Positions 11,578 to 62,091 of a stretch of 64,000 nucleotides of DNA are shown here, in pieces. Positions within the stretch are counted from its first letter, which is position 1, and the number at the start of each line of letters is the position of its first letter. The notes beneath the pieces were generated by a model. That model was not told the DNA's origin, made no database searches, and worked only from the letters and a program-made list of their open reading frames with translations. The translations under genes and the position numbers were made by a program. Source of the DNA: an uncultured Clostridia bacterium (lineage in GTDB: Bacteria; Acidobacteriota; Blastocatellia; UBA7656; JADIYM01); the NCBI GenBank assembly GCA_964591515.1, contig CAZQBW010000001.1, positions 36,316-100,315 on the forward strand, written 5' to 3'.

Positions 11578-11817
11578 TACGAAAACCCTGTATCGGCGTG
11601 GGATGAGCGCGCGAACCGCGGCGCCCGAACTATACTCCGGACCCGACTCCTGGCTCAACGCCCGGGCCACCCCAATCCGATTTGTCTGGTGAATGCGTAG
11701 ACGGGTCGTTCAACCGACTGAGAACGACCCTGCAACTTCGGAATCTTCATGAGGAACTCCTGTCGCCGGTCGTGACTCAATCGCGTCCTCACCGCGAATG
11801 GAGGCGTCACGCAGGTC

Positions 11818-36023: not shown

Positions 36024-37427
36024 TCATTTTGACATCTCGTACTCACGGAGTTTCCGGTAGAGCGTCTTCGTCGCGATTCCGAGCGCCCTCGCAGTGCGGT
36101 CTCGATGGCCTTCGAATCGCTGGAGCATAGCCTCGATGTGCCGCCGCTCGACCTCCGCGAGCGTCGCCGCTTCGGAAGGGTCTGTCGGACTCGCCTGGCC
36201 GGCTGCGGATTCACCTCCCGGTCTTCCCGCAACAAGGATTCTTCCGGGCAGATCGCGAACCCGAAGCACGTTTCCGTCCGACAGGATGACGGCGCTCTCG
36301 ATGGCGTTCCTCAACTCGCGGACGTTGCCAGGCCATTCATACTCCGAGAGCGCCGCAACCGCAGCCGGCTCGATTGCCGTGACGCGGCACCCGGTCTCGA
36401 GCGCCGCCCGCCGCATGAAGTGCTCTGCCAGCAACGGCACGTCGTCTCTCCGCTCCCGAAGTGACGGCACCTCGAGCGTCACAACTGCGAGTCGAAAAAA
36501 CAGATCGCGCCGAAAGCCGCCACCCTCGATCAGCGATTCCAGCGGCCGGTTCGAGGCGGCTACAACCCGAACGTTTGCAGTAAGTTGAGACACACCGCCG
36601 AGCCTCCGGAACCTGCCGGTCTCGAGGAACCGCAGCAGCTTCACCTGCGACGCGTGAGGCATTTCCGAGACTTCGTCCAGAAAAAGCGTGCCGCCGTCCG
36701 CCGCCTCGACAAGCCCCGACTTTCGACCGGCAGCACCCGTGAACGCTCCCTTCTCATGGCCAAAGAACTCGCTCTCGAAGAGCGTCTCCGGAAGCGCGCC
36801 GCAGTTCACGTCGACGAACGCCTTGTCGGCGCGCCGACTTTTCCTGTGGACGAGCTGTGCAGCGAGCTCCTTGCCGGTGCCCGATTCGCCGAGGAGAAGG
36901 ACATTTGCATCTGTCGGAGCGATCCTGGCGATTCGAACTTCGAGGTCGTGCATCGGGCGACTGCGGCCAATGAGCTCGATCTCGCCTTCCCGGTGCCGCA
37001 GGATCGTGCGAAGCGCCGTGTTCTCGCGCAACAGCTCGCGACGCTCGAGCGCGCGCTCGATGACGGCACGCATCTCGTCAATGTCGCACGGCTTTGTCAG
37101 GTAGTCGTACGCACCTAGCTTCATGGCCTCGATCGCCGTGTCGATCGTCCCGTGCCCCGTTAGCATTACGACCTGTGGACCAAATTCGCCAGTCGCGGCA
37201 ATTCGGCGCAGCACCTCGATTCCACCGAGCCCCGGGAGCCTGATGTCGAGCAGGACGACTGCCGGCGCCGTCGCCTCGACTGCAGCGATGGCAGCGTTTC
37301 CGTCTCCCACGCCTTCGACAGGAAATCCGAAGTCTCCGAGCTCGGCAACGAGGAATCGCCGATAGGCGTCGTCGTCCTCGACCACGAGAAGTCGCGCACG
37401 CTCGGTTCGTTCGGCCGCCTTCGCCAT
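36024..37427 (-). CDS. Sigma-54-dependent response regulator (NtrC family)
   Basis: REC domain. GESGTGKE, GAFTGA. C-terminal Fis-type HTH. Confidence 0.9.
   Translation of the reverse strand: MAKAAERTERARLLVVEDDDAYRRFLVAELGDFGFPVEGVGDGNAAIAAVEATAPAVVLLDIRLPGLGGIEVLRRIAATGEFGPQVVMLTGHGTIDTAIEAMKLGAYDYLTKPCDIDEMRAVIERALERRELLRENTALRTILRHREGEIELIGRSRPMHDLEVRIARIAPTDANVLLLGESGTGKELAAQLVHRKSRRADKAFVDVNCGALPETLFESEFFGHEKGAFTGAAGRKSGLVEAADGGTLFLDEVSEMPHASQVKLLRFLETGRFRRLGGVSQLTANVRVVAASNRPLESLIEGGGFRRDLFFRLAVVTLEVPSLRERRDDVPLLAEHFMRRAALETGCRVTAIEPAAVAALSEYEWPGNVRELRNAIESAVILSDGNVLRVRDLPGRILVAGRPGGESAAGQASPTDPSEAATLAEVERRHIEAMLQRFEGHRDRTARALGIATKTLYRKLREYEMSK
36824..36839. repeat. TGTCGGCGCGCCGACT, 15/16 copy of the palindrome family; inside the sigma-54 regulator CDS
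   Basis: Read in sequence. Confidence 0.7.
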
Positions 37428-40238: not shown

Positions 40239-41120
40239 CTAAGCTCGAGGATGGAACTTGCGGTACGCCTCGCGCAGCCGTTCGTTCGTGACGTGGGTGT
40301 AGATCTGGGTCGTGGAGATGTCGCTGTGGCCGAGCATCATCTGGACCGACCGCAAATCTGCACCGTGTTCGAGCAGGTGCGTTGCGAATGTATGACGGAG
40401 CATGTGAGGTGTCACGCGGCCGAGCTTGGCCCGCTCGCCATATTCGACAAGGCGCTTCCAGTAGATCTGCCGCGTAACGGGCGTACCTCGCGACGTCACG
40501 AAGAGGCTGTCGCCATTTCTGTCTCCGGCCATGCGCCTTCGAGCTGGCAGGTAACGGCGGATGGCCTCGATGGCACCACTCCCGACCGGAACACGGCGTT
40601 CCTTCGAGCCCTTCCCCAGACACGTGACGAGTCCGGCGTCGATGTCGACGTCCGAAAGCTTCAACGTGACCATCTCAGACACACGCAGTCCCGACGAATA
40701 CAGGAGCTCGGTCATCGCCCGATCGCGAAGCCCCTCGTCAGTCGTGACATCGGGCTCTTCCATCAATTGGTCGACCTCTTCCCGGGTGAGGAATTTCGGC
40801 AACGTCTGCCAGCTGCGGGGAGTCTCGATATTCACCGTCGGATCGTGATGAATATGTCCGTCGAGGATGAGAAACTTGTAGAGGTTTCGGACTGTAACCA
40901 TTGTGCGCGCACAGGATTGGGGCTCCAGTCCCGATTCCCTCAAGTGACGGATGAAGGAAAGCAGATCGGCGCGCTCGATTGTCAGGATCTCACGCCCGCA
41001 CGACGCAGCATAGCTCACGAGCTTTCGAAGGTCTCGCTCGTAAGCCTCCATCGTATTTGACGAAAGTCCCTTCTCGACGCGAAGGTATCGGAGGAATTCC
41101 TGGCAGAGGTCGCGCGGCAT
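40239..41120 (-). CDS. xerD: Tyrosine site-specific recombinase XerD
   Basis: C-terminus LRHTFATHLLEHGADLRSVQMMLGHSDISTTQIYTHV...HPRA closely resembles XerD. Start at internal ATG. Confidence 0.8.
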   Translation of the reverse strand: MPRDLCQEFLRYLRVEKGLSSNTMEAYERDLRKLVSYAASCGREILTIERADLLSFIRHLRESGLEPQSCARTMVTVRNLYKFLILDGHIHHDPTVNIETPRSWQTLPKFLTREEVDQLMEEPDVTTDEGLRDRAMTELLYSSGLRVSEMVTLKLSDVDIDAGLVTCLGKGSKERRVPVGSGAIEAIRRYLPARRRMAGDRNGDSLFVTSRGTPVTRQIYWKRLVEYGERAKLGRVTPHMLRHTFATHLLEHGADLRSVQMMLGHSDISTTQIYTHVTNERLREAYRKFHPRA

Positions 41121-41249
41121 CGCCTCGGGTGGCTCCTTGTCTCGGTCCGGAAACGGCGTTAGTCTTGCGACGCGTCGCGCCGGTGAATCTGACCGGCGCC
41201 AAACCATTGCGTTATCAGACGATATGTTCGTTTCGGGGAGACGTCAAGA

Positions 41250-42296
41250 ATGAAATTGAGCGAGGTTGCTGCCGCGCTGGGTCTCGAGATGGGAGGCGCC
41301 AGCGAACCGGAGACCGAGATCACATCGCTAGGCAGCCTGATCGACGCGAAAGCTGGACAATTGACCTACATCGCGGAAGCCAAGCACGCACAGGGACTTG
41401 CGACAACGGGAGCATCGGCTGCAATCTGCCGGACCGAACATGCCGAGGGCGCGCGGATTCCCTGCCTCTTGAGCAAACACCCGGGGGCGGACTTTGCAAG
41501 GGCGAGTCGACTTCTGCATCCGAGGCGGCGAATGGCGGCCGGAGTGCACGACACGGCCGTCGTTGCCGAGTCGGCTACGATCGGGCACGGCGTCCACATC
41601 GGTCCGTTCGCTGTGATCGGCGAAGGCGTCATTGTTGGAGACGGCAGCGAGATCCATGCACACTCGGTCCTCTATGACGGAGTCCGCGTCGGCCTCGATA
41701 CGGTTATCTACGGCGGCTGTGTCATCAGAGAAGGCTCGACCATTGGTGACCGCTGCATCCTGCAGCCGGCCGTCGTTCTCGGAAGCGACGGTTTCGGTTT
41801 CGCGCGCGATGGCGACGGACACTACGAGAAGATCGAGCAACTCGGCGTTGTGGTCGTCGAGGACGACGTCGAAATTGGCGCCGCAACCACTGTCGACCGG
41901 GCCACTTTCGGCGAGACGCGAATCCGCCGCGGTGCCAAGATCGACAACCTCGTCCAGATCGGCCACAACGTGGTCGTCGGAGAAGACACGATTCTCTGCG
42001 CACAGGTCGGCCTTGCCGGATCGACGATCGTCGGTCGCGGTGTGACGCTCGCGGGACAGGTCGGAGTGGCAGGACATTGCGAGATTGGCGACGGCGTCAT
42101 AGCGACGGCACAGACCGGCATTCCCAACTCGGTCGAGGCGGGCAAAGTCGTTTCAGGCTACCCGGCTATCGAGAATCGGGCGTGGCTCAAGTCCTCGGCT
42201 GTCTTCAACAAACTGCCGGAGCTGCAGAAGGCGGTGCGAAGACTCGAAAGGGGGCTCGCTGATCGTGCCGGAGACGACGAATCCGGAGTTCTGTGA
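41250..42296 (+). CDS. lpxD: UDP-3-O-acylglucosamine N-acyltransferase
   Basis: Hexapeptide-repeat left-handed beta-helix. LpxD N-terminal region. Confidence 0.85.
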   Translation: MKLSEVAAALGLEMGGASEPETEITSLGSLIDAKAGQLTYIAEAKHAQGLATTGASAAICRTEHAEGARIPCLLSKHPGADFARASRLLHPRRRMAAGVHDTAVVAESATIGHGVHIGPFAVIGEGVIVGDGSEIHAHSVLYDGVRVGLDTVIYGGCVIREGSTIGDRCILQPAVVLGSDGFGFARDGDGHYEKIEQLGVVVVEDDVEIGAATTVDRATFGETRIRRGAKIDNLVQIGHNVVVGEDTILCAQVGLAGSTIVGRGVTLAGQVGVAGHCEIGDGVIATAQTGIPNSVEAGKVVSGYPAIENRAWLKSSAVFNKLPELQKAVRRLERGLADRAGDDESGVL

Positions 42297-42395: not shown

Positions 42396-44873
42396 CTACT
42401 GCAATACGACCGGTGCGGTGAAGATGCCAGAGATGAAGACTCGAACAGCAACCGGCTTTGCTTGAAGGAGTTGCGGTAGTCGCGAGTCTTTGCCGACCAG
42501 TCGGCTGCTCGTTCCGTCCGTCCCGACAAAACGCGGCGGAGCTTTCACTGATCCGAGGGCAGTCTCGCCAACGAAGATCTCCCCACCCGTAGCCGGCAAG
42601 CGCAGTCCGTCGACCGTCAGCTTCTTGCCGCTCGTGGCGAACCTGGCGGATCCAAGAACTGGAGCAAACGGATCCAGCGCGTCCACGGCGGCTGACGATG
42701 CTGTCGCCATCGATTCGATTCCCTCTCCATCAACGAAATCGACCCGCACAGTAGCCGATGCGAGCATCAGGCCATTCACGATTGCTGGCGCGGCCGACTG
42801 ACCGAGCACGAAAGCTGACTTGGATCCCGTGGCCCAGTCGCCGTCCCCGTCAAGATCCACTCGGAGCACGGCGCCGATCGCATCGCGATCCGGCTGAGCA
42901 TCTGCCGCGTGTGCGTCTGCGTCGGAATCCGTTCGAGCTCGCAGACGAAGCGTCCCCGTTCCGGAGCGCGGATTCTGCATGATTCCGATCTCGCCAGACG
43001 ACGTCACGCCAAGATCAACGGTGCCGGAACCATCCCGATCCACCCATACCGCCGACGTCAGGTCCGCAGGCAGAGAGAAGCGCGCCGTCGCGTCGTCGAA
43101 TCCGTTCGCACCGCGATTGCGAAGCACGTGGATGCCGTCCTGCCCACCCTCGACGAGCAGGTCCGTATCGCCGTCGGCATCGTAATCCGCCGGCAATACT
43201 CGAGTTCCCCCCGCAAGCCCCCCGATCGCAAGCTCCGACGTAACGTCGAGAAAACGAAGTTCGCCTCCAACACCGGCGAGCACCAGATTCCCTGCCAGAC
43301 GCGTCGCAACGACGTCGAGCCATCCGTCTCCGGTCACGTCCGCCCACGCAACGGCCGACGCGGGAAAGCTCACGGCAGATCCGAACGCCGTCGACTCGTC
43401 AACCATTCTTCCTTCGGTGTAGCTATAGACTCGAAGTCCGGCTCCGGTCGCGACCAGCAGCCGCGGTCCCCCGGCAAGCCCCGTTACCGGCCCCGTTGGC
43501 GCGCTCCACGTCGACGAAGCATCGACGAAGCCGTCCGCCGTGTTCTTCAGTGCGAGCAGTCCCGTCGACCCGCCAGCCACGACATCGAGACGACCGTCCC
43601 GGTCGACGTCCATCCAGACGACCGCGCGCGGGTCCGCGAATCGGGGAAGAGATGTCGGCGCGCCGACACTGGTGAACGAACCGAGCCCATCGTTACGCCA
43701 GATGCTCGTCGCATTGACAGCGAGCACCGCGAGATCCGGAGTCCCGTCGCCATCGGCGTCGCCCCAGGCGAGCGCGCGAACATCGCCGGGAAGCGTCAAT
43801 CCAGAGGCCTCGGTCGATTCGGTGAACGTCCCGTCGGCCTCCTGCAGGTAGAGGAGGACGCCTCCTGCGCTGCGGCCAACCACGACGTCCTGACGGCCGT
43901 CGCCGTCGACATCGGCCCAGGCCTGTCGCTGAAAGTCGCCGCCGAGAGGCGCCTCCGCGATTGGCACCGCCGTGGACAGCCCAAGCGGCGCGATCGTGAG
44001 GTTAGACCGCGACTGATCGGTTCGCTCGGTACCACCAGTGTCCACTACAACGACCCGGATCCGGGCATCGGTCGTGGCGAGGGCCTCGGGAATGGTCCAC
44101 ACGAATGACCGTGCGGTCGCCGGCAGATTGTCTGCCAGGACGGACGGGTAATTCTCGCCGCCGTCCGTCGAGAGCAGAACACGGAAATAGGATGGCGTGG
44201 CAGAGTCGCCATCGGTTGCGCTCCAGCGAATGACTACGCGCTCACCCGATCCGAGCGGACTGCCAGTCGTCGGCGATTCGAGTCGGACGCGAACAAAGCG
44301 TGTTAATCCATCGATAGTTACGCTCGTTGTGTAAATGTAATCGTAGAAGTCCGTGTGGTCACCGTTGGCCGCATTTCCAGCTGCGTAGAACGTCACGGGT
44401 CCGAGGTCGGTCGATGGCGCTTTCCAGACCATTGACCAGGATACTTCTCCGCGTGATCCGTCATAGGTCCCAGTCAAGGTGTGCTGTGCGTAATACCGGC
44501 CAAGACGCTGCGAAGGCCCGAGTGCCGAGACCGAGAGCGTGCTCGACTGGAAGAAGCCCGCGGCGTGACCGAGTTCGTCGATGGCCGTGATCTGGAATCC
44601 CCACTTCTTGGCCAGCGGATCCGAGACCCTAACGGTCACTGGGTACGTCTGGCCGGGTGTGTACTGTGTCGGAAGTCCCTCGATCGCCACACGGCCGGGG
44701 CCGGAATCGAGTGGATAGGTCCGGTGGCACGTATTGCACGCCACCTCGCTGGGCGCACCGGTCCGCTCGAGAAAGGGTCCGGTCGACAGCGCTTCCACCG
44801 ACTCGGACGACGACATCAGTACGACCGCGGCTACCGCAAAGACGAGAAGGGCGAGTGACTTCAGTAGTTTCAT
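42396..44873 (-). CDS. Secreted FG-GAP/VCBS-repeat protein with N-terminal CxxCH motif (CNTCH)
   Basis: Signal peptide MKLLKSLALLVFAVAAVVL. Repeated D.DGDG..D motifs (DVDGDGRQDVVVG, GDADGDGTPDL, DVDRDGRLDVV, DVTGDGWLDVV, DYDADGDTDLL). Confidence 0.75.
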   Translation of the reverse strand: MKLLKSLALLVFAVAAVVLMSSSESVEALSTGPFLERTGAPSEVACNTCHRTYPLDSGPGRVAIEGLPTQYTPGQTYPVTVRVSDPLAKKWGFQITAIDELGHAAGFFQSSTLSVSALGPSQRLGRYYAQHTLTGTYDGSRGEVSWSMVWKAPSTDLGPVTFYAAGNAANGDHTDFYDYIYTTSVTIDGLTRFVRVRLESPTTGSPLGSGERVVIRWSATDGDSATPSYFRVLLSTDGGENYPSVLADNLPATARSFVWTIPEALATTDARIRVVVVDTGGTERTDQSRSNLTIAPLGLSTAVPIAEAPLGGDFQRQAWADVDGDGRQDVVVGRSAGGVLLYLQEADGTFTESTEASGLTLPGDVRALAWGDADGDGTPDLAVLAVNATSIWRNDGLGSFTSVGAPTSLPRFADPRAVVWMDVDRDGRLDVVAGGSTGLLALKNTADGFVDASSTWSAPTGPVTGLAGGPRLLVATGAGLRVYSYTEGRMVDESTAFGSAVSFPASAVAWADVTGDGWLDVVATRLAGNLVLAGVGGELRFLDVTSELAIGGLAGGTRVLPADYDADGDTDLLVEGGQDGIHVLRNRGANGFDDATARFSLPADLTSAVWVDRDGSGTVDLGVTSSGEIGIMQNPRSGTGTLRLRARTDSDADAHAADAQPDRDAIGAVLRVDLDGDGDWATGSKSAFVLGQSAAPAIVNGLMLASATVRVDFVDGEGIESMATASSAAVDALDPFAPVLGSARFATSGKKLTVDGLRLPATGGEIFVGETALGSVKAPPRFVGTDGTSSRLVGKDSRLPQLLQAKPVAVRVFISGIFTAPVVLQ

Positions 44874-44925
44874 GATCGCCGGGAATGGTACCACGACGCG
44901 TCGCGAACGAACCTCGGTGCTCAAG

Positions 44926-51735: not shown

Positions 51736-52596
51736 TTACTGTTTCGTGTCCTTCTTGCTGGTTGAGATCCGGGATTCGACCTCCGTAAGGGCGGTCCGTA
51801 GCGCTTCAGCAAGGTCGTGATCGGAAACTTGCGATCGCTTGAAGCGGAGCTGGACCGAAAACTCCTTCGACACCGGCTGGAACCGGAACTCGTAGGGCCG
51901 CGGACGTGAAGACACCTCGGGCTTGCGAGCCGCCCTCGCCTCATCCCGTGTCATTCCCTGGTTTCGAATTCGCTCGACGAATGCACGCTGCTGGTCGGCA
52001 TCCTTCAACCGGACGACCTGAAGCAGCAGTGATTTCGAGGAAATGTCGGCGCGCCGACAAAGATCCTTGACCTCGGCCGGAAGCGTCGCAATCGACAAGG
52101 CCTCGGTGATTGTCGAACGCGATTTCCCTATCCGCTGGGCGATCAACTCGTGAGTGTAGCCATACCTCGTCGCGAGAGCCTCGAGCCCCTCGGCTTCCTC
52201 GAAAGGCGTGAGGTCCTTGCGCTGCAGGTTCTCGATGAGCGCAATTTCGGCAACAGTTCGGTCGTCGACGTGCATTTCGATACACGGCAGCTCTACGAGG
52301 CCGGCCGCCATGCTCGCCCGATATCGACGCTCGCCCGAGATGATCATGAATCGGCCACCGATTTCTGCCGGGCGGACGAGCAGCGGCTCGAGCACGCCGA
52401 CTGATTTGATCGAGGCGACCAGATCCGTGAGATCGCCGATCTCGACGCGTGGCTGGCCAGGATTCGGCTCGAGTCGGTCAATCGGGATGAGCCGGCCGAT
52501 CGGGGCGCCAACCGATCGCGTTGCGAGTTGCTCGACGTAGTGCTGGTCATGGCGGAGCTTGAAATCCGTCGGAAGACCTCGCTTAGACACGTGCAA
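51736..52596 (-). CDS. parB: Chromosome partitioning protein ParB
   Basis: GERRYRA box. [22 protein letters not shown]. Confidence 0.85.
52044..52059. repeat. TGTCGGCGCGCCGACA perfect 16-bp palindrome located inside parB
   Basis: Read in sequence. Confidence 0.75.
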
Positions 52597-53344
52597 TTAC
52601 CTCCTGGCAGAGCCTGGCATACTCGGTCGCTCCCGTGGACGTGGGCGCGAACGTGAAGATGGGTTCCTTGTAAGCCGGACTCTCCTCGAGTCGGACCGAC
52701 TTCGAGATCACGGTGTCGAACACCTTGTCGCCAAAGACTCCGCATATCTGGCGGTAGATGTCGCGGGCGAGGGTCGTACGCTTGTCGTGAAGCGTTATGA
52801 CGACGCCGAGCACCTGCAGATTGGGGTTTGGCCGCTGCTTGACCTTCTCGACGGTCTCGAGCAGGTCCTCTGTTCCCTCGAGCGCGAAATAGCTGGATTG
52901 GATAGGAATGATCAGATGAGATGACGCAACCAGTGCATTGACGGTGATCAGTCCAAGTGTCGGCGGCGTATCGACGATGACGAAATCATAGGTGTGTCGA
53001 ATCGGGTCGATCCGGTCCTTGAGGCGAAACGGAGCGTCGAACTCACCAATGAGCTTGGCCTCGACCTTGGCGAGCGAGATCCGCGAAGGAAGCACGAAAA
53101 GCCCGTCGACCGCCGTCGACAGCAAGCATTCACTGACCGTAACCGATTGATCCGTAAGGAGATCATAGACCGATAGCCCGATCTGGCTGGCTTCGATGAA
53201 GGAAATGGACGAATTCGCCTGCGGATCGAGGTCGACGAGCAGGACACGCTTTCCGAGCAGTGCAAGCCCGGCAGCGACATTTATAGCTGTCGTTGTCTTG
53301 CCGACGCCGCCCTTCTGATTTGCTACCGCTATGACAGGAGTCAC
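52583..53344 (-). CDS. parA: Chromosome partitioning ATPase ParA/Soj
   Basis: [18 protein letters not shown] deviant Walker A. Confidence 0.9.
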
Positions 53345-53362
53345 GAGAATCGGACCTCCACG

Positions 53363-53914
53363 CTACATCTTGTAATCGCTGCTGACGTCGTCGTCGAAGT
53401 CATCCGGCCATTCGGACTCCTCGTCCTCACTGAACGGATCGTCATCGGCGGCGTCGTCATCGTCCTCTTCATCGACGTCATCTTCCTCATCGTCGGCAAT
53501 ATCGCTGGTGGCGATCGTGTTGCGCGACGAGTTGATGACTTCCTCGTTCACGAAAATGGGGCAATCGACGCGCAGCGCGAGCGCGATCGCATCCGATGGG
53601 CGCGCATCCAGCACCAGGCGCTTGCCGTCAAGCGTCATCTCGATCACTGCGAAGAAGGTGTTCTCGATGAGATCCGTAACGACAATCCGGTCTACAGTGG
53701 CACCGATCTGAGCAATCAGGTTCCGGAGCAGGTCGTGAGTCATCGGTCGTTGCGGTGCGCTCTTTTCGATCTCGAGAGCTATCGCATTCGCCTCATATGG
53801 CCCCACCCAGATTGGGAGCATCCGGTCGCTGATGACGTCCTTGAGGATCACTATCGGGGTGTTCGCCGTCGGATCCATCATCAACCCCCGGATCTTCATT
53901 TCTACTTCGACCAT
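53363..53914 (-). CDS. Bifunctional nuclease (DUF151) family protein with acidic C-terminal tail
   Basis: IVILKD...LPIWVGPYEANAIA...THDLL pattern. Poly-D/E tail. Confidence 0.65.
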   Translation of the reverse strand: MVEVEMKIRGLMMDPTANTPIVILKDVISDRMLPIWVGPYEANAIALEIEKSAPQRPMTHDLLRNLIAQIGATVDRIVVTDLIENTFFAVIEMTLDGKRLVLDARPSDAIALALRVDCPIFVNEEVINSSRNTIATSDIADDEEDDVDEEDDDDAADDDPFSEDEESEWPDDFDDDVSSDYKM

Positions 53915-53931
53915 GGCCACGTCCTTGCTGC

Positions 53932-55326
53932 TCAATTGGTTACGGCAGGACAACTAATGTCCCGCACGAGCTCCCCATAGAGACTGTGCGCCTTCACACC
54001 CGTGATTCTTACCGGAACCACCGATCCAGGCCCAATTTCGGTCCCGGATCTGAAGTTCACAACTGCATTGCAGGTGGAATGCCCGGTCAGATCGATTGGA
54101 TTGCGAGCAGACGGGCCATCAACCAATACTTGATGTATTGAGCCTAAATACCTGCCAGCTCGGCGATTTTGGACTTCGGCCTGAAGTAAGAGCAAGCGAT
54201 CGAATCGCTCACGCTTTACATCAGGCGATACGTCATCGATCCACTCGGCGGCCGGCGTATGAGGTCTCGGCGAGTAGTTAAAGGTGTAAAGTGCGTCGAA
54301 TTCGACCTGACGGACCAGATCGAGGGTCTCTTCGAAGTCATCGTCCGTCTCTCCCGGAAATCCGACGATGATGTCGGACGTCAATGTGTAGTCACGCCGG
54401 GCCGCCCTTATCGTGCCGATGAGCTCGAGGTACCGTTCGCGTGTGTAGCCTCGGTACATTCGCTTCAGTGTGCGATTCGAACCGGATTGCACCGGAAGGT
54501 GAATCCAGTCGCACAATTCGGGATTGTCGTCCATTACGCGAACGATGTCTTCGCTGAAGTCGCGTGGGTGTGAAGTGGTGTACTTGATACGGTCGACGCC
54601 AGACTCCCGCGCGACACGCTCGAGCAATGCCGGAAAGGCATTCTCCTCGAATCGCCTACCGGACGAACGCTCGACCCACGCGGAATACGAGTTTACGTTC
54701 TGGCCGAGCAGATGCACTTCCCGGTACCCGGCTTCGCCAAGCTTTCGAACTTCCTCGACGACCGAATCCATCGTCCGGCTTCGCTCGCGCCCTCGCGTGT
54801 AAGGCACGATGCAGTAAGAGCAGTTCTTGTTGCAGCCCTCGATGATGGTAACGAATGCCACGGAACCTGCGCGCCGAGCGCCAGAATCAACGTCGATGAA
54901 ATCGGGACGGTTGTCCTGGCGAAGGTCAATGGCGCGCTCGAATCCGCGATCGAGCTGTCCGACGAGGTCGACCAGTCCGTCCAGCGCCTGTGGGCCGACG
55001 ACGAGCCTCACGGTCGGCGACCGCTCGAAGATCTTCTCGGCTTCGGACTGTGCGACGCAGCCGAGAACCCCTACGATCGGATCGCGCCCCTTCGTCAGGT
55101 GTCGCAACGCCCGAACTCGATGGAAGACCTTCTCCGAGGCTTTCTCGCGGACGCTGCAAGTATTCAAGAGGATCAGGTCGGCTGCTGACGGATCGTCCGT
55201 TTCCGAAAAACCAATCGGACCAAGCAGAGACAGAGCCTTCTCGGAGTCGTGAACGTTCATCTGACAACCGTGTGTCTCAATGAATACGCGTCGCGTAGCT
55301 GCAGGGTCGTGCGACTCTCGCGACAT
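53932..55326 (-). CDS. miaB: tRNA methylthiotransferase MiaB (radical SAM plus TRAM)
   Basis: FIETHGCQMNVHDSE, CNKNCSYCIVP radical-SAM cysteines, C-terminal TRAM. ORF extends in frame to 55455; start chosen at internal ATG. Confidence 0.75.
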   Translation of the reverse strand: MSRESHDPAATRRVFIETHGCQMNVHDSEKALSLLGPIGFSETDDPSAADLILLNTCSVREKASEKVFHRVRALRHLTKGRDPIVGVLGCVAQSEAEKIFERSPTVRLVVGPQALDGLVDLVGQLDRGFERAIDLRQDNRPDFIDVDSGARRAGSVAFVTIIEGCNKNCSYCIVPYTRGRERSRTMDSVVEEVRKLGEAGYREVHLLGQNVNSYSAWVERSSGRRFEENAFPALLERVARESGVDRIKYTTSHPRDFSEDIVRVMDDNPELCDWIHLPVQSGSNRTLKRMYRGYTRERYLELIGTIRAARRDYTLTSDIIVGFPGETDDDFEETLDLVRQVEFDALYTFNYSPRPHTPAAEWIDDVSPDVKRERFDRLLLLQAEVQNRRAGRYLGSIHQVLVDGPSARNPIDLTGHSTCNAVVNFRSGTEIGPGSVVPVRITGVKAHSLYGELVRDISCPAVTN

Positions 55327-55550
55327 TCGGGCGATCGGCGCGGCATCGATCGCAACTGGCGAATCGACGGCCGAATCCGACAAGACTGGAAGTTTGAGGA
55401 CGGGCACGATTATCGGCGATCGGAGGACGTACCTACGAGATGGAGTATGTTCCACGTGACACGGTCACAAGCTGTGGTAGTCGCGTCGAAACGGAGAGGA
55501 GTCTATCACGTGCCAGCGAGCCATGCCAGCAACGTCGTTTCGAGCCATAG

Positions 55551-55566
55551 TGTCGGCGCGCCGACA
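55551..55566. repeat. TGTCGGCGCGCCGACA perfect 16-bp palindrome upstream of miaB
   Basis: Read in sequence. Confidence 0.75.
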
Positions 55567-55929
55567 TAGTGCGCAAGTTACTGACTCAGGACATTTTGCG
55601 GCTTCTCAAACGGCTATAGACCCTGAATGTCTACTAGCAACCGGACCACCGGTATCACGTAAGCGGCCTTAGGCAGTCGTTCCACTGTCAAACGCGCCAC
55701 GGAACCCTACCGTGGAACATTTCGAGCCGGAATATCTACCCTTTCAAAAGCAAGAACTCTGGCCCAGAAGCGGCCCTAAGGGACTTCGAGCCATCGTGAC
55801 CGTCCCCGATCCAGGCTTCCCGAATTGAGAAGCCACGCGTCGGCCTTGTTACAGGGTCAGAACAGTTCGCTGGAACCTCTCGCGCGCTCATTAACTCGAT
55901 CTGACGGGCCAGTTAGGTCTGCGTCGAGC

Positions 55930-57606
55930 TCAGTGCGGGCTTTTCCGGAGTAGTTCCCTGGCGTGGCGTCGAGCCGTCTCGAGAGTTCCGCCGATCATCC
56001 GGGCGATTTCGTCAACCTGGCCCTTTCCGTCCAGCAACTCGATCCTGGTTACGGCGCGGTCGTCAACTGTGTCTTTCCGGGCCGAATAGTGTACGTCCGC
56101 GAATCTCGCAATCTGGGCCTGGTGAGTGACACAAAGCACCTGATTGGCTCGACTCAACCTTGCCAGCCGATGCCCGATCGACTCGGCGACGCGGCCCCCG
56201 ATTCCGACGTCGATCTCATCGAAAATCAGCGTTCGCGGGATCTGCGGCGGCGCAGACACCGTCTTCAGTGCCAGCATCAACCGTGACGTCTCGCCACCCG
56301 ACGCGATCCGGGCGAGCGGTCTCAGCTCATCTCCAGGGTTCGTGGCAACGAGAAACTCGACCTGATCGATTCCGTTCGACTTGAATCCCGCCTGATCGCT
56401 CTCCGCAGAAGACCTGATTTCTACCGAGAAACGAGTCTCCTCCATTGCCAGCTCTCGTAGTTCGGAAAGTACGGATTCCTCAAGTCGCGCAGCAGCGCCT
56501 TTTCGCCGTTTCGATAGCTTATGTGCTACTTCAATAAATCGATCGCAAGCTGCTCTCATTTCTGCAGTGAGAGCATCTCGCCTCTCGGCTGAATCGAAGA
56601 TCCGCGAGCTCTCGGCCGATAGCTCTTCGAGGGTCTCGCGCACTGCCGCGAGCGAGCCGCCGTACTTTCGTTTCAACCGGTCGAGCTCCTGTAGCCTGTC
56701 TTCAACGGCGCTCAGTCGATCTGCTGAAAAATCAATCTCTTGCAGGTAATCCCTGAGGTATTGCGCGAGGTCATCAAGCGTATACTTTACCGTTCTGAGC
56801 TGGTCGACATACGGAACAAGCCGTTCGTCGAATCGGGACAATGACTCGAGCTTGCGATCCACGTGAGCCAGAGTGGCAAGCACCGAACCTTCGGCGTCAT
56901 AAAGGCCGACATATGCTTCGTTTGCGGCGTCAATGATGCGCTCGGCGTTCACCAGCATCTGCCGCTCGCGCTCCAGCTCATCATCTTCGCCAATCTTCAC
57001 GGCAGCTCGTTCGATTTCCGCAAGCTGAAAGGCCAGCACGTCGGCGCGCTGCAGCCTTTCCGCCTCGGACTGATTCAGACTATCGGCTTCGGCCCGGGCC
57101 GCACTCCATTCAGCGTGCCGCCGGGCGACTTCCTCGCGAAGGCCCGATACATCCGCAAACTCGTCGAGGAGCTCGACGTGCGCCCCGGGATCCAGAAGCG
57201 TCTGCTGGTCGCCCTGTCCGTGAATGTCGACGAGAAACGGTCGAAGGTCTCGCAGGAGTGAAGTCGTCACCACAACGTCGTTGGCGAAGGCCCGGCCACG
57301 TCCCTTCTCACTTATCTCTCGACGGAGAATCAGTTCGCCTTCACCTGCCTCTATCCCTGCGTCGGAAAGCAGCGCCAGGGCGGCCAGATTGCCGGAGACG
57401 TCGAAGACACCTTGAACCGTTGCCGATTGCGAACCTGTTCGAATTACGTCCGACGAGGCCCGAGCGCCAAGCAGCAGGGCTATGGCCTCGACGAAGATCG
57501 ACTTGCCCGATCCGGTCTCACCGGTGAGCAGATTCAGGCCGGGGCCAAGCTCGATCGAGGCCTCGGTGACGACTGCAAAGTTCCTGATCCGAACCAGTTT
57601 CAGCAT
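55930..57606 (-). CDS. recN: DNA repair protein RecN
   Basis: MLKLVRIRNFAVV...GETGSGKSI Walker A. Coiled-coil middle. C-terminal signature region. Confidence 0.9.
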   Translation of the reverse strand: MLKLVRIRNFAVVTEASIELGPGLNLLTGETGSGKSIFVEAIALLLGARASSDVIRTGSQSATVQGVFDVSGNLAALALLSDAGIEAGEGELILRREISEKGRGRAFANDVVVTTSLLRDLRPFLVDIHGQGDQQTLLDPGAHVELLDEFADVSGLREEVARRHAEWSAARAEADSLNQSEAERLQRADVLAFQLAEIERAAVKIGEDDELERERQMLVNAERIIDAANEAYVGLYDAEGSVLATLAHVDRKLESLSRFDERLVPYVDQLRTVKYTLDDLAQYLRDYLQEIDFSADRLSAVEDRLQELDRLKRKYGGSLAAVRETLEELSAESSRIFDSAERRDALTAEMRAACDRFIEVAHKLSKRRKGAAARLEESVLSELRELAMEETRFSVEIRSSAESDQAGFKSNGIDQVEFLVATNPGDELRPLARIASGGETSRLMLALKTVSAPPQIPRTLIFDEIDVGIGGRVAESIGHRLARLSRANQVLCVTHQAQIARFADVHYSARKDTVDDRAVTRIELLDGKGQVDEIARMIGGTLETARRHARELLRKSPH

Positions 57607-57712
57607 ACGTGCAGGGAGGGCGCAGTCTACCACAGGCGTCCGTTGGACAGCCTCTGCGATGGTCTGCTAGATTGCCTTTCGAGAGGCGCCACGAAACACT
57701 GCGGAGGAAGAT

Positions 57713-58162
57713 ATGGCTTCGTTTAACAAGATTACTATCGTCGGCTATCTCGGGCGGGATCCCGAGTTGCGATACACGCCGTCCGGAACGGCCGTCTGCG
57801 ATTTTTCGATGGCGACTACCGAGCGAAAAGGACGTCGCGACAGCGGCGAGGGCGAAGACGTCACGACCTGGTTTCGCGTTTCGCTCTGGGCAAAGCAGGC
57901 CGAGCTCGCACACCAGTACCTCGCCAAGGGACGTCTGGTTTACGTCGAGGGTCGACTGACCCTTCGCGAGTACACCGATCGTGAAGGCAACAAACGAACT
58001 AGCCTGGATGTCTTCGGCACCGACATGCAGTTCATCGGTTCGCGCGCTGACGAAATGGCGGCCGGGGCCGGTGGCGGCGGCGGCCGTGCCGCTTCACAGT
58101 CCGGGCCGCGTGAGGCCGCGCCGGCCAGCGAAGCAATCGGGGATGATGATATCCCCTTCTAG
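57713..58162 (+). CDS. ssb: Single-stranded DNA-binding protein
   Basis: OB-fold N-terminus (NKITIVGYLGRDPELRYTPSG). Gly-rich linker. Acidic tail DDDIPF. Confidence 0.9.
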   Translation: MASFNKITIVGYLGRDPELRYTPSGTAVCDFSMATTERKGRRDSGEGEDVTTWFRVSLWAKQAELAHQYLAKGRLVYVEGRLTLREYTDREGNKRTSLDVFGTDMQFIGSRADEMAAGAGGGGGRAASQSGPREAAPASEAIGDDDIPF

Positions 58163-58264
58163 GCAAGAACGTTCCCAATGGGGGCCGGCATCGCTGGCCC
58201 CCAGTTTTGCAGGTACCTCGCGATCCTGACGCGGGGACTGCACTTCAGTTCTCAGGTCGAGCTG

Positions 58265-58282
58265 CCTCTACGTAATGTCGGC
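58265..58282. repeat. ATGTCGGCGCGCCGACAT perfect 18-bp palindrome between ssb and the SDR gene
   Basis: Read in sequence. Confidence 0.75.
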
Positions 58283-58383
58283 GCGCCGACATAACGACTG
58301 TTTCGATGATTTGGTAAGAAATCCGAGTCTCGATCTCTCGGGTTCTACTCTCACAGGGCCAGTTTCAGTCACCATTCGCAGCA

Positions 58384-59160
58384 ATGGACCTTCACCTAGC
58401 GGAGAAAGTGGCGATTGTAACCGGCGCGAGCCGCGGAATCGGTCGATCGATCGCTGAGACGCTCTCGGCCGAGGGTATGCCGGTCGTGTTGGTGGCACGT
58501 TCGCTGGACGACCTCGAATCTGTAGCGTCTTCGCTTACTGCGCCTAGCTTCGTGCTGGCAGTCGACCTTCGCGACGACGGAGCTCCTGAACTCGTAGTTC
58601 GCTCCACCATCGATCGGTTCGGGCGGATAGACCTGCTTGTCAACAATGCCGGCGACACGAAGCGGGGTGACTTTCTCGACCTGACTGATGACGACTGGGC
58701 CCAAGGCTTCTCGCTCAAGTTCCGAAGCGCCATGCGATGCTGCAGAGAAGCCTGGCCCTATCTCAAGGAAAGCAGAGGTTCGATCGTCAACATCGCCGGA
58801 ATCGGAGGAAGAACCGGAAGCGCCGAGTTCACCATTGGTGGTTCCGTCAACGCCGCGCTCCTCAATCTCACGAAGGCGCTTGCGGATCGTGGCGTCCGGG
58901 ACGGTGTTCGGGTCAACGCCGTCAATCCGAGCTCGATTGCCACAGACCGGCTGACCTCACGGGTTCGCCGCGTGGCGGAGGATCGCGGTATTGACGAGAG
59001 TGTGGCCGCAACGGAAATGGCCGGCAGGTTGCGCGTCTCGCGATTCGGCCGTCCGGATGAAGTGGCACACGTCGTGGCTTTTCTCGCATCAGAGGCGGCG
59101 TCGGGCTACTGCAATGGGTCAATAGTTGATGTCGACGGGGGGCAGACGAGGACTCTTTGA
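58384..59160 (+). CDS. SDR-family oxidoreductase
   Basis: TGASRGIGRSIA Rossmann motif, 258 aa. Confidence 0.8.
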   Translation: MDLHLAEKVAIVTGASRGIGRSIAETLSAEGMPVVLVARSLDDLESVASSLTAPSFVLAVDLRDDGAPELVVRSTIDRFGRIDLLVNNAGDTKRGDFLDLTDDDWAQGFSLKFRSAMRCCREAWPYLKESRGSIVNIAGIGGRTGSAEFTIGGSVNAALLNLTKALADRGVRDGVRVNAVNPSSIATDRLTSRVRRVAEDRGIDESVAATEMAGRLRVSRFGRPDEVAHVVAFLASEAASGYCNGSIVDVDGGQTRTL

Positions 59161-59334
59161 ACGATTATGCCCACGAATGCGCTGGGACGTGATGCCGTCA
59201 GTTGATTCAGCTTTTACATTATCATTACGTTCGTAAACATCACCTATCGTGACTGTTTTTGACATCAAGCGATTTATGAGCATCTGCCGGGACTGCTAGC
59301 TGACTTGGTCCACTTGCCCTCGCTGAGCGGCGAT

Positions 59335-60144
59335 TCATCGAAGGATTACCGCGCGAATGAGAGCGTTGAACAGCGAGTCTGGAAGCAGCCGGCGTAACAC
59401 GAGCAGCTGCAGTGAGTTCGCGCTGTACCTGAGCTTCCTGGATCCATCTGTCAGCGCGCGTTGCACAACTTTCGCAACGAGCTCAGGGCCAGGAGCCGTT
59501 TCTCCAGACCTCTGCATGTTCGCCATAGCGCGTTCAACGAACGCATCGTATGCCGTAAGACCTTCTTTTCGAATAACATCCATCGATCTATCGTAGAATT
59601 CAGTGCGTATGGGCCCCGGCTCGACAATCTTCATGTGAATGTTGAACTGACGAAGCTCAAACTGAAGCGACTCTGAGAATCCTTCCACAGCCCACTTTGT
59701 CGCGTGATAGACGCTGTAGAGCGGAAACGTAATTCGTCCGCCGACCGAGGCCACGTTGAGAATCGTCCCTCCACCCTTCTCACGCATATGCGGAACTACT
59801 TCGCGGACTACATTCATTAGTCCGAAGACGTTCGTCGAGAACTGTCGCTCTACCTGCTCGGAAGTCGACGCCTCGAACGGGCCGACGAGTCCGTATCCGG
59901 CGTTGTTCACGACTGCGTCAATCCGGCCGAATCTCACAATTGATTCGCCGATCACGCGCCTGATCGACTCGGTATCCGTGACATCGAGACTGGGCGCTAT
60001 GAAGCGGTCACTCGTCGGCACCCAAGTCGCTTTCTCCGGACTCCGCATCGAGGCAACGACGTTCCAGCCGGCTTCGTGAAGCCGCAGAACAGTTGCCTTT
60101 CCAATTCCGGAAGATGAACCTGTGACAATGAGCGTCTTCGTCAT
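59335..60144 (-). CDS. SDR-family oxidoreductase
   Basis: Start at MTKTLIVTGSSSGIGKA. 1-nt TGATG overlap with the upstream TetR stop. Confidence 0.75.
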   Translation of the reverse strand: MTKTLIVTGSSSGIGKATVLRLHEAGWNVVASMRSPEKATWVPTSDRFIAPSLDVTDTESIRRVIGESIVRFGRIDAVVNNAGYGLVGPFEASTSEQVERQFSTNVFGLMNVVREVVPHMREKGGGTILNVASVGGRITFPLYSVYHATKWAVEGFSESLQFELRQFNIHMKIVEPGPIRTEFYDRSMDVIRKEGLTAYDAFVERAMANMQRSGETAPGPELVAKVVQRALTDGSRKLRYSANSLQLLVLRRLLPDSLFNALIRAVILR

Positions 60145-60875
60145 CAGTTCGAAGCGCCTCCTGCCTCGTAACCGCGAAGGAGAGTTCTGAGGCCTTCCGT
60201 AAACTCCCGGTCGAAATCGAGCGCAAAGATTGAAAGCGATCGATCGTCGGCTATCACACGTTCCACCGCCGGTGACGGAGACGTCATCATCGCGAGACCG
60301 AGAAGGAATGCCCGCAACTGGAAGATGAGCCGCGCTCCATCTCCGGGTCGCAGGAAGGTGATCCTCCGCTCGAGCCGCTGGCCAGTCGCAGCCATTCGAC
60401 CGGCGAGCCATCGCTTGAACACCCGGAGCGTGTCGACGTCCACGTTGTACTCGATCACGGACTCGAGAGCAGTCAGCAGCCTGATGAGAGACCGGCGCCC
60501 TTCGAAAGACAGCGCGATCTCTCGCGCCGCCCGATCGCTGCTCCAGGAGCCGAATGACGAGTCAAGTGCAGCGTCGATCGCCGAGAACCAGGCGTCGAGC
60601 TTCTCTCTGAGGATCTCGAGGAGCAACTGCTCCTTGGTGTCGAAGTAGAGATACACGGTGGCCTTCGAGACTCCTGCGCGCTGACCGATGCCGGCCATTG
60701 TCGTCGACTCATAAGTCCCCAGGTCCCAGAGATCTCGTGCGGCCGCAAGCAGCGCTTCTCGCCTCTCGAGTTTGTGCTCGGTATTGCGGGCCCTCTGTCG
60801 GATCGATACTGCCACCGCGTACCTCACTTTACTGACCGCTGGTCGGAAAATAACCGACCACCGGTCAGTCGTCAA
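60144..60875 (-). CDS. TetR-family transcriptional regulator
   Basis: HTH TMAGIGQRAGVSKATVYLYFDTKEQLL. Confidence 0.8.
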   Translation of the reverse strand: MTTDRWSVIFRPAVSKVRYAVAVSIRQRARNTEHKLERREALLAAARDLWDLGTYESTTMAGIGQRAGVSKATVYLYFDTKEQLLLEILREKLDAWFSAIDAALDSSFGSWSSDRAAREIALSFEGRRSLIRLLTALESVIEYNVDVDTLRVFKRWLAGRMAATGQRLERRITFLRPGDGARLIFQLRAFLLGLAMMTSPSPAVERVIADDRSLSIFALDFDREFTEGLRTLLRGYEAGGASN

Positions 60876-61119
60876 TCGAAAAGTGAGAAGTCAGCACGCG
60901 TCCGTGCAGTTCTGGAAGCAGTTGAAGGCGCGCGTCGTCCGCCTCACGCATCCGTACGGGGCGCGGCAGTGCTCGGGTCGATCTCGGGAGCGTGTTGCCA
61001 CAAAAGGCGCGGGCTACCGGAGAAACTGGCGCGAGCGCTGCCGCGCCCGGTCCTGATGTTTGGACCGCCCGTCTCGCGGGATTGCCGGCAGCCTCCCCGC
61101 TGCGACTGTGTGCCTGTCG

Positions 61120-62091
61120 CTACATAGCGACAGGCTGGCCCAATTCAACCAGCCGCAACGCAATACTCTCGGAAATCGAAGCGGGAAATACGGCGCCGGC
61201 CTGGATGACCCGGGACCCGGAGGCAGCGAGCGCTCCTCGGGGCATTCCACGCTCGACCACGACAACCGCCGGACCCGAGAGGCCTGCCTCCCCGAGCGAC
61301 GGAGCGACGACCCGGGCAACGTTCACGATTCCGGCGTAACCGGAGACGGCGTCGGCAAGCCAGGTGGCGGCGCGTTCATCTCCGGCCACCACTATTACGG
61401 AGCTGCGCGGCTCGATCTCGAGTATCTCGCGGATACAGGCTCGATCGAGAAGCAGCGCGACGTCCAATGTCGGCGCGCCGACAGGAGGCGCTGCAGGGTC
61501 GAGCACACCGAAGAGCGGGCGGACAACGAGATCGCAGCCCTCGATGCCAGCCGGCTCCGAAACGGGCCGCACGCGTCCGGCTCCCATGGCCCGAAGCGAT
61601 TCGGCGAGCTCGCGCGCTCGCCACGCCGGCGACGCCAGGACCCCGATCGTCGGGCCTGCCGGAGCGCGGCCGCCGGCAGACTCGAGCGCTGCCTGTGTCC
61701 GGGCGATGACCTCTGCCGGATCGAGTCCAGCCGAAAGCGCGTGCTCGACCGCCGCGGAGATCATTGCATCGATGGACTCCGGCACTTCGCCGGTCGCGCT
61801 TCGATAAGCCGTGGCCGATTCCGACTCGGTCCGGAGGATGACGGCTCCCTTTCCGCGCGTGCTCTGGATTATCCCATCGCGCTGGAGTTCCGCGTATGCC
61901 CGCAGCACTGTATTTAAATTCAGTCCGAGTTCATCTGCCACCTGTCGCATCGGCGGCAGGTATTCGCCAACTCGAAATCGCCCCGCAGCAATGAGATACC
62001 GGAGCTGATCGACAACCTGCAAATAAACCGGAAGGCCGCTGCCGCGTCGCAATACGACTCCGGTTGGCTCTGAAGCGATCTGTCTTCGCAT
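61120..62091 (-). CDS. GntR-family transcriptional regulator with about 230-aa C-terminal effector domain
   Basis: N-terminal GntR wHTH (LPPMRQVADELGLNLNTVLRAYAELQRDGII). Confidence 0.65.
   Translation of the reverse strand: MRRQIASEPTGVVLRRGSGLPVYLQVVDQLRYLIAAGRFRVGEYLPPMRQVADELGLNLNTVLRAYAELQRDGIIQSTRGKGAVILRTESESATAYRSATGEVPESIDAMISAAVEHALSAGLDPAEVIARTQAALESAGGRAPAGPTIGVLASPAWRARELAESLRAMGAGRVRPVSEPAGIEGCDLVVRPLFGVLDPAAPPVGAPTLDVALLLDRACIREILEIEPRSSVIVVAGDERAATWLADAVSGYAGIVNVARVVAPSLGEAGLSGPAVVVVERGMPRGALAASGSRVIQAGAVFPASISESIALRLVELGQPVAM
61468..61483. repeat. TGTCGGCGCGCCGACA perfect 16-bp palindrome inside the GntR-family gene
   Basis: Read in sequence. Confidence 0.75.

Follow-up and report, generated by a model that had tools for sequence, protein, structure and literature searches.

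A non-canonical palindrome around parAB as the probable parS of a divergent ParB clade in Acidobacteriota

Genes and palindromes of the locus

The subject of this report is a palindromic DNA motif found around the partition genes parA and parB in a 64-kb stretch of acidobacterial DNA. The whole of this stretch is called the window. In the window, parB and parA are located on the minus strand with a bifunctional-nuclease-domain (BFN) gene, miaB and recN, and seven copies of the 14-mer GTCGGCGCGCCGAC are distributed around them. These genes, and the genes that host or adjoin copies of the motif, are as follows.

36024–37427, minus strand: sigma-54-dependent NtrC-like regulator; hosts site 36824
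42396–44924, minus strand: FG-GAP repeat protein gene; hosts site 43653
51736–52596, minus strand: parB, with a ParB_N CTPase domain, a divergent helix-turn-helix (HTH; ..SSKSLLLQ) and a C-terminal domain
52583–53344, minus strand: parA, Soj-type ATPase; overlaps the parB start
53363–53953, minus strand: BFN gene (PF02577); adjoins parA
beyond the BFN gene, minus strand: miaB and recN
57713–58162, plus strand: ssb; upstream neighbour of site 58276
58384–59160, plus strand: SDR gene (one of two); on the other side of site 58276
61120–62091, minus strand: GntR-family regulator; hosts site 61468

The true start of parB is probably a GTG two codons in. ParA has the deviant Walker A motif KGGVGKT and matches AAA_31 and CbiA. 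The ParB protein has no identical entry on record. Its closest relatives (92–98% identity) are labelled Blastocatellia, and a profile search for cultured representatives gave only unnamed or metagenome-derived Blastocatellia proteins. The window comes from the chromosome of a Blastocatellia-class acidobacterium, the genome of which has a G+C content of 62%.

The copies of the motif, together with one site resembling canonical parS, are located as follows.

26914–26929: variant AGTCGGCGCGCCGACT with the 14-bp core intact; outside confidently called genes, about 25 kb from parB
36824–36839: variant TGTCGGCGCGCCGACT with the 14-bp core intact; in the NtrC-like sigma-54-dependent response-regulator gene, read S-R-R-A-D
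43653–43668: perfect 16-mer TGTCGGCGCGCCGACA; in the FG-GAP repeat protein gene, read V-G-A-P-T
52044–52059: perfect 16-mer; in parB, encoding C180-R-R-A-D184 just past the HTH
55551–55566: perfect 16-mer; between recN and miaB, upstream of the miaB–BFN–parA–parB string
58276–58291: perfect 16-mer; between ssb and the SDR gene, within a perfect 18-mer ATGTCGGCGCGCCGACAT at 58275–58292
61468–61483: perfect 16-mer; in the GntR-family gene, read V-G-A-P-T in a frame unlike that of the parB copy
55448–55463: canonical-like half parS, TGTTCCACGTGACACG on the plus strand and CGTGTCACGTGGAACA on the minus strand; about 100 bp from 55551

The 14-mer starts at 26915, 36825, 43654, 52045, 55552, 58277 and 61469. 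The expected number is 0.00, and no match was obtained in any of 100 dinucleotide-preserving shuffles. Five copies are the perfect 16-mer (43653, 52044, 55551, 58276 and 61468), and the other two deviate at the outermost bases only (A..T at 26914 and T..T at 36824). All seven are located within 26.9–61.5 kb of the window, that is, within 35 kb around parAB, and the 14-mer is absent from 1–26.9 kb.

An earlier sequence-only reading of this DNA had counted six 14-mers and four perfect 16-mers, and had placed one of the latter at 58265. Its claim of over-representation, with a chance expectation far below one, was borne out by shuffling, and its copy inside parB (52044, codons C180–D184) and its two distant copies varying just at the outermost positions (26914 and 36824) were found again. 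The perfect copies at 52044, 55551 and 61468 and the copy with the perfect 18-mer are also real. However, the copy at 43653–43668 had been overlooked, the numbers are seven and five, and the 18-mer copy lies at 58276–58291. The same reading reported no canonical parS in the window. This holds at strict stringency, but TGTTCCACGTGACACG at 55448–55463 is only two mismatches from TGTTNCACGTGNAACA.

The 40 bases on either side of the seven copies have no likeness to one another. Thus, the motif is a discrete site and not a piece of a longer repeat; a mobile element was rejected on the same ground. The half-site TGTCGGC occurs 21 times after subtraction of the full sites, versus about 17 expected, so half-site enrichment as in Pseudomonas was also rejected. 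Four of the seven copies are inside coding sequences and are read in two frames, as CRRAD or SRRAD in some genes and as VGAPT in others. The Rfam scan gave no family in the window and no RNA family adjoining the 16-mer in 15 related loci; on these grounds an RNA element was rejected. None of the window sites was predicted to be terminator-like, and the hairpins of the two intergenic perfect sites are ordinary compared with shuffled sequence (z = -0.5 and -1.2). With four of the seven copies in coding sequences, an intrinsic terminator was rejected for the window copies.

ParB type and the motif in related loci

The ParB protein matches Pfam PF02195 (3e-23) and PF17762 (HTH_ParB). It passes the NCBIfam model TIGR00180 with 141 bits (cut-off 58) and fails the Noc model TIGR04285 with 145 bits (cut-off 315). 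The N-domain motifs GERRYRA and ENLQRKDL are present in the translation, and GERRxRA/ENLQR is invariant in the alignment of the clade (alignment A1). Judged by its sequence, the protein is a bona fide CTPase-type member of the ParB family.

According to Jalal et al. (2020; PMC7383237), the contacts with parS are made by R173 and G201 and also by Q162, G170, K171, S172, N178 and R204. R173 hydrogen-bonds G1, R201 of Noc reads C6:G-6, and R173 and G201 are described as absolutely conserved in ParB orthologues (PMC7383237). The residues of the window ParB were matched to these by alignment to solved ParB and Noc structures and by alignment A1. In the list below the Caulobacter numbering comes first, and the residue number of the window ParB is lower by 13.

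R173: kept, as R160
N178: E165
T179: A166
R181: S168
A184: T171
'AGHARAL' helix: 'SSKSLLL', with no Gly, His or Arg left; the register is uncertain by about two residues

Measured against the residues by which ParB reads parS, the window protein retains R173, has Glu instead of N178, and has KSLL where GHAR would be expected. The sequence-only reading had proposed a comparison with ParBs of known specificity, and by this comparison parS-contacting residues are replaced. The Noc signature Q173/K179/K184/R201 is absent as well, as residue 173 is Arg, 179 is Ala and 184 is Thr. T164, E165 and L167 of the window ParB are invariant across the clade. The new site keeps T0-G1-T2 of canonical parS, positions 3–7 are changed, and position 6 is C as in the Noc-binding site (NBS). 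The kept T0-G1-T2 would be consistent with the kept Arg, and a Lys at or near position 201 with C6.

Eighty metagenomic loci were retrieved by means of conserved ParB N-domain peptides, blind to the motif. Fifty of them contain full-length relatives with an S-(I/V)-T-E-x-L recognition helix (TExL-type), and 30 contain canonical ParB (ANxLRLL ... GHAR). From inspection of the TExL-type loci, the conserved element consists of two 7-bp arms and a free 2-bp centre, TGTCGGC-NN-GCCGACA (TGTCGGCNNGCCGACA). The centres GC, TG, CG, AT, AC, GT and AG are found among the lineages, and the window has GC. This element is present in 24 of the 50 TExL-type loci (27 sites versus 0.0035 expected in 399 kb), and the canonical core GTTNCACGTGNAAC in none of them. 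In the 30 canonical-type loci the result is reversed: 15 have the canonical core (26 sites), and none has the new motif. Fisher tests on the split by ParB type gave p = 1.5e-6 and 2.3e-8. The new motif and canonical parS are mutually exclusive by ParB type, and the motif co-occurs only with ParBs that have the S-(I/V)-T-E-x-L helix and SKSxLL instead of GHARAL. No other palindrome shared by the ParB loci lacking the motif was found.

The exact 16-mer was sought in 185,579 species genomes (596 Gb), and a sample of 120 eight-kb chunks among the matches listed was analysed. This sample is arbitrary and was chosen without regard to parAB, and the counts in this and the next paragraph refer to it. 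About 80 of the 120 chunks are from Acidobacteriota, in many classes (Blastocatellia, Thermoanaerobaculia, Terriglobia/Acidoferrales, Vicinamibacteria, Holophagales, Aminicenantes and Polarisedimenticolia). The remainder come from scattered G+C-rich genomes with G+C-rich flanks, in line with chance. Homologues of parA and/or parB were detected in 40 of the 120 by tblastn with the window genes, and the identity of their ParB to that of the window ranges from 70% down to 39%. By random placement in a genome of about 5 Mb, only about 0.2% of sites would fall into the 8-kb chunk that holds parAB. In 23 of these 40 chunks the 16-mer lies within parB at equivalent codons (amino acids ~178–181), and in the other 17 it is elsewhere, for example 30–93 bp past the parB stop or about 80–900 bp upstream of parA. 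Linkage to parAB is thus kept across classes while the exact position of the site moves. Of the Blastocatellia-type matches listed, 13 of 17 are in a parAB chunk, and two more are beside recN. A Binatia locus (L059) and a Cloacimonadota locus (L048) share this motif–parAB arrangement.

About half of the acidobacterial copies among the matches listed sit within a few kb of parAB. The acidobacterial matches are about twice as many as the chance-like ones among those listed from 596 Gb, i.e. the perfect 16-mer is rare. The sequence-only reading had offered a HIP1-like iterated palindrome as an alternative; by this rough test, the rarity of the 16-mer and its proximity to parAB disfavour it. The same reading had asked whether related genomes share the motif, and many classes of Acidobacteriota do, in linkage to parAB.

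Protein identity was the sole criterion for fetching eight Blastocatellia parAB loci with flanks of ±10 kb, and every one of them has at least one perfect site. In the close clade of the window (ParB 80–92% identical), three to five sites are found at orthologous places: next to ssb, in the recN–miaB gap, in parB and in the FG-GAP gene. The position in parB is shared by L121, L207, L123, L208, L209 and L127. Site 55551 is invariant in the window, L121, L207, L123 and L208, and its flanks are unalignable. Sites adjacent to ssb also occur in L121, L207 and the distant L125. Both in the recN–miaB gap and next to ssb, the 16-mer is a perfectly identical island within DNA that cannot otherwise be aligned. 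The FG-GAP copy (43653) is kept in L121, L207, L123 and L208 despite diverging flanking codons and amino acids. The A..T outer variant recurs in L127, 5.4 kb from parB. Further conserved islands, GCTGGC and CGTGnTAnAnT, are located before the miaB–BFN–parA–parB string, downstream of the recN–miaB site.

In 13 parB genes encoding CRLAD, the codons TGT-CGG-CTG-GCC-GAC are frozen, whereas synonymous variation is found in the neighbouring codons for Leu, Ile, Ser and Lys. This lineage carries TGTCGGCCGGCCGACA upstream of parA. When the site is inside parB, the peptide is always CR(R/L/H/Q)AD. When the site is outside parB, the peptide at this place is free (VSWASG, RALELG, KLEGAG, CREAG or CRQAS). 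Because the peptide varies without the site, synonymous positions are frozen, and the motif also occurs in other genes and frames, the copy in parB is not a by-product of protein conservation. Protein-coding constraint as its cause was rejected. According to these sequence comparisons, the motif is under purifying selection at the DNA level.

The sequence-only reading had also considered a restriction-modification bias, and an artefact of this kind or of composition, with GGCGCGCC or GCGC in the centre, would agree with the AscI-type 8-mer in the core and with the G+C content of 62%. However, dinucleotide-preserving shuffles give no copies, the arms are conserved whereas the centre varies among lineages, and linkage to parAB would not be produced by such a bias. 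The variable centre and the linkage effectively refute this explanation, and we consider it hardly tenable.

In common with known ParABS systems, the locus has a CTPase-domain ParB, an adjacent Soj ParA and clustered palindromes of about 16 bp near and inside parAB. The canonical parS consensus TGTTNCACGTGAAACA is not followed, only TGT...ACA being shared. TGTCGGC-NN-GCCGACA is probably the parS of a divergent chromosomal ParB clade found across Acidobacteriota and in a few neighbouring lineages. The sequence-only reading had taken the motif for a candidate parS-like target, of non-canonical sequence, of the ParB encoded next to it; the parAB linkage, the tracking of the ParB clade and the selection at the DNA level strongly support this proposal.

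Observations weighing against the assignment

Several observations weigh against assigning the motif to ParB. The co-variation of ParB type and motif is confounded with phylogeny. All TExL-type ParBs belong to one clade, so that a phylum-specific protein other than ParB could yield the same two-by-two table. In one ParB sub-clade, which has the same recognition helix, sites are absent from the ±10 kb around parAB. By tblastn with an E. coli DnaA query, dnaA was found only in three canonical-type loci, and neither in the window nor in the acidobacterial loci. Further points of this kind come from the Terriglobia-type copies and from the canonical-like half site, both described below.

The confounding would agree with binding of the motif by some other phylum-specific DNA-binding protein (nucleoid-associated, occlusion-type or regulatory), ParB itself binding something else. 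A site for another nucleoid protein was among the alternatives of the sequence-only reading. The Terriglobia-type sites away from parAB, the canonical-like parS remnant that adjoins the new motif in two lineages, and the position of some sites in promoter-proximal intergenic DNA point the same way. However, the site follows parAB at shifting positions across classes in which ParB identity falls to about 41%, which is a habit of parS and not of an operator, and most of the window copies are inside coding regions. The DNA-binding domain of ParB lacks the residues that read canonical parS, so this ParB needs a different site, and the canonical core was found in none of the 50 motif-blind TExL-type loci. 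We therefore consider binding by another protein unlikely.

In Terriglobia/Acidoferrales, none of the 25 sites among the matches listed is in a parAB chunk. Sites in Terriglobia are scattered; one contig, for example, has them at 0.54, 0.89 and 2.98 Mb. The Terriglobia-type 16-mer has A4/T4 flanks and occupies gaps between convergent genes, and its fold resembles that of a bidirectional terminator (z = -3.5 in L012). It is often carried on composite repeats in unrelated gene contexts.

These features, with the 19-nt units or TTCGAA repeats described below, would be expected of a dispersed structural or repeat element (HIP-like, repetitive extragenic palindromic (REP) or miniature inverted-repeat transposable element, or bidirectional terminator), its enrichment at parAB being incidental. 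In the window, however, the flanks are unrelated, no site is terminator-like, the hairpin energies are ordinary, and four of the seven copies are in coding sequences. Perfect copies are also rare, and about half of the acidobacterial ones listed are at parAB. We judge a repeat element to be a highly improbable explanation of the motif.

Two families of flanks were observed for the Terriglobia-type copies. In the first, the 16-mer is located 45–250 bp from one to four copies of a 19-nt unit, TTTGCGTATGTAGGGGAAA, often 39 bp apart, together with a G-rich hairpin (L012, L028, L039, L041, L047, L053, L066, L078, L079, L083, L085, L094 and L119). This dispersed, intergenic composite repeat is absent from the window. 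In the second, TTTAAAGTAA..TTGAAGG and several (G/A)TTCGAA(T/C) motifs come after the 16-mer (L001, L016, L036, L037, L054, L088, L118 and L082). In the three loci with checked neighbours, L001, L016 and L082, the 16-mer is between convergent unrelated genes, a terminator-like position. Some metagenome-assembled genomes (MAGs) of the second family bear the labels Dongiaceae, Eisenbacteria or Limnocylindrales; here, acidobacterial contigs may have been mis-binned. Of 15 Terriglobia-type loci scanned, three (L028 7309–7354, L085 198–243 and L054 5121–5166) have the RNA family Acido-Lenti-1 (RF01687) at a distance of 1–4 kb from the 16-mer. In two Acidoferrales loci (L044 1934–4234 and L098 4582–7657), three to four perfect sites surround recO–glyQ–glyS–ppdK, with no parAB in the chunk. 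This cluster may be the centromere region of Terriglobia.

The canonical-like half site near 55551 is conserved as well. CACGTGGAACA is invariant in five relatives (window 55448–55463, L121 7122, L207 7127, L123 7134 and L208 7124), in the recN–miaB intergenic region or 5' untranslated region, about 100 bp from the new motif. The two-mismatch match of the window is by itself not significant, and its left arm is decayed. However, L208 has the full consensus match TGTTACACGTGGAACA at this position, and in the unrelated MAG L082, also acidobacterial, GGTTTCACGTGAAACC is present as a perfect palindrome at 6671–6686, 44 bp from the new motif. The half site is of the type of Pseudomonas and Myxococcus, and only two independent cases were found in the 1.26 Mb of acidobacterial DNA. 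Possible readings are a remnant of ancestral parS, a site for a second ParB, and an operator with no relation to either, and the half site may not belong to the system.

If the 55448 half site and its orthologues were the real centromere, recognised by a second, canonical ParB from elsewhere in the genome, the new motif would be secondary, Noc-like or regulatory. The invariance of CACGTGGAACA within a diverged intergenic region and the complete sites of L208 and L082 are in favour of such an arrangement. Against it, the site has only two independent occurrences in the 1.26 Mb, and no canonical-type ParB gene was found there. The partner of ParA is the divergent ParB, and the left arm of the window half site has decayed. 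A canonical centromere of this kind is, in our view, very unlikely.

Seven matches to GTTTCACGTG (half of canonical parS) were also found in acidobacterial DNA, at L042 3331, L051 5081, L073 3772, L084 718, L095 5175, L103 3634 and L129 3289. Judged by the MetK motif, these appear to be metK coding sequence (..VARETIREIGYT.., …VARET…), and they were discarded as canonical parS. GTTTCACGTG recurs about 1.4–1.6 kb from the site in parB, and is a trap for consensus-based parS searches.

Proposed mechanism and relation to known systems

In the proposed mechanism, ParB dimers would recognise the two 7-bp arms via the altered HTH. The kept G of the outer TGT would still be contacted by the Arg that corresponds to Caulobacter R173, and the exchanges N178E, G201 to Lys or Ser, and R204 to Leu would serve to read the CGGC of the inner positions. 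The Noc site likewise has C at position 6, and in Noc this base is read by a basic residue at 201. With CTP bound at its N-domain, in which GERRxRA/ENLQR is intact, ParB would form a sliding clamp and spread from the seven or more sites. The adjacent ParA-ATP would move the partition complex built over this region, where SMC would probably be loaded. The recN–miaB site and the conserved islands are located upstream of miaB–BFN–parA–parB, so ParB may also autoregulate this string. We infer binding, spreading and segregation from established ParABS biology.

A wider scenario is that the whole phylum replaced the identity of its primary-chromosome centromere, with exchange of the ParB residues G201, N178 and R204, otherwise regarded as invariant, and with conversion of parS to TGTCGGC-NN-GCCGACA. 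The Terriglobia sites would then have left parAB, gained A/T-run flanks between convergent genes and multiplied on composite repeats, and would double as bidirectional terminators or mobile 'centromere cassettes', with a relic canonical parS beside some of the new sites. We put this scenario forward tentatively, and regard it as rather doubtful.

The likeness to canonical ParABS, as known from Bacillus, Caulobacter, Thermus, Myxococcus and Pseudomonas, is extensive. It includes the parA–parB operon with a Soj-type ParA, the ParB with its CTPase N-domain, central HTH and C-terminal domain, the several 16-bp palindromes around parAB, one of them in parB as in spo0J of B. subtilis, and the outer TGT...ACA with an Arg that would read its G. 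In contrast, the two sites disagree at the ten central positions, which are CGGC-NN-GCCG with a free central 2 bp here and T(T/C)CAC-GTG(A/G)A in TGTTNCACGTGAAACA. In the protein, the helix is (I/V)TExL(S/A)(I/L) here versus (V/I)ANxLRLL in canonical ParB, and KSxL takes the place of GHAR. The N- and C-terminal regions of about 35–60 residues of this ParB align only within the clade.

The Noc/NBS system of Firmicutes (ATTTCCCGGGAAAT) is also a case in which the specificity of a ParB-family protein is switched by a few changes in the helix region (173, 179, 184 and 201). NBS has C at position 6 as well, and both proteins have a basic residue at or near 201. However, Noc is a paralogue beside ParB that lacks a partner ParA, and N178 and R204 are unchanged in it, whereas here the parA-linked ParB itself is changed. 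The acidobacterial site also differs from NBS at positions 1 and 3–5.

Non-canonical palindromic centromeres that have co-evolved with their ParB are known from secondary replicons and plasmids (Vibrio cholerae ParB2–parS2, repABC and KorB–OB). The site gTTTATGCGCATAAAc of Burkholderia cenocepacia chromosome II is likewise such a replicon-specific centromere. These pairs exist beside a canonical primary system. Here, in contrast, the primary chromosome is concerned (miaB, recN, ssb, lpxD, xerD and plsX–fabDF), and the acidobacterial variant is fixed across the whole phylum.

With HIP1 and REP elements, the motif shares the property of a short, G+C-rich, perfect palindrome over-represented relative to composition. 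HIP1, however, occurs about once per kb genome-wide, whereas the acidobacterial motif is rare, is tied to parAB and tracks a variant of the DNA-binding domain. The REP-like likeness is limited to genomes of the Terriglobia type, where the motif is on dispersed composite repeats.

Chromosomal parS is commonly regarded as one of the best-conserved cis-acting sequences of bacteria. The sequence TGTTNCACGTGAAACA has been given as parS for 'the vast majority' of chromosomes (PMC7022226). In a literature search for the 14-mer, and for parS or ParB with Acidobacteria or Acidobacteriota, no description was found. If the motif is the parS of this ParB clade, as is very probable, it would be an exception, not yet described, to a sequence that is otherwise nearly universal among bacteria. 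The closest precedents for re-specification, Noc/NBS and the secondary-replicon and plasmid pairs, are not on the primary chromosome of a whole phylum.

If the assignment to ParB is correct, the motif would represent natural and deep ParB–parS co-evolution on a primary chromosome, complementing the ParB-to-Noc switch studied by mutagenesis. Consensus-based parS searches would miss Acidobacteriota, which are among the most abundant soil phyla, and annotation of centromeres and origin domains would become possible in them. The pair would probably be orthogonal and of use for DNA-labelling tools, which now rely on a few ParB/parS pairs. The assignment would also give concrete, cheap predictions at residues 178, 181, 201 and 204 and for one 16-mer.

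The window contains further genes. Large open reading frames (ORFs) with high third-position G+C (GC3) and no Pfam match are present on the minus strand at 3766–6675 (969 aa) and 10039–11670 (543 aa), and high-GC3 ORFs of 176 and 202 aa, likewise with no Pfam match, at 1145–2297 on the same strand. The genes plsX, fabD, fabF, ETF genes, pfk, a sensor kinase gene and the second SDR gene are also found. Two more identified genes are the following.

40239–41207, minus strand: xerD, tyrosine recombinase; passes the XerD model
41250–42296, plus strand: lpxD

The BFN protein of the window has no NCBIfam match. The BFN (PF02577) gene adjoins parA in several classes of Acidobacteriota, mostly as miaB–BFN–parA–parB. 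This adjacency was observed in the window, L121, L123, L125, L207–L210 and about 26 genome loci, and in L209 the BFN gene is divergent from parA. In the distant Blastocatellia relatives L125, L208, L209 and L210, a tyrosine-recombinase gene is located a few kb from parAB; these recombinases were identified as Pfam integrase domains only. The gene lpxD is a few kb from parAB in L125, L208 and L209.

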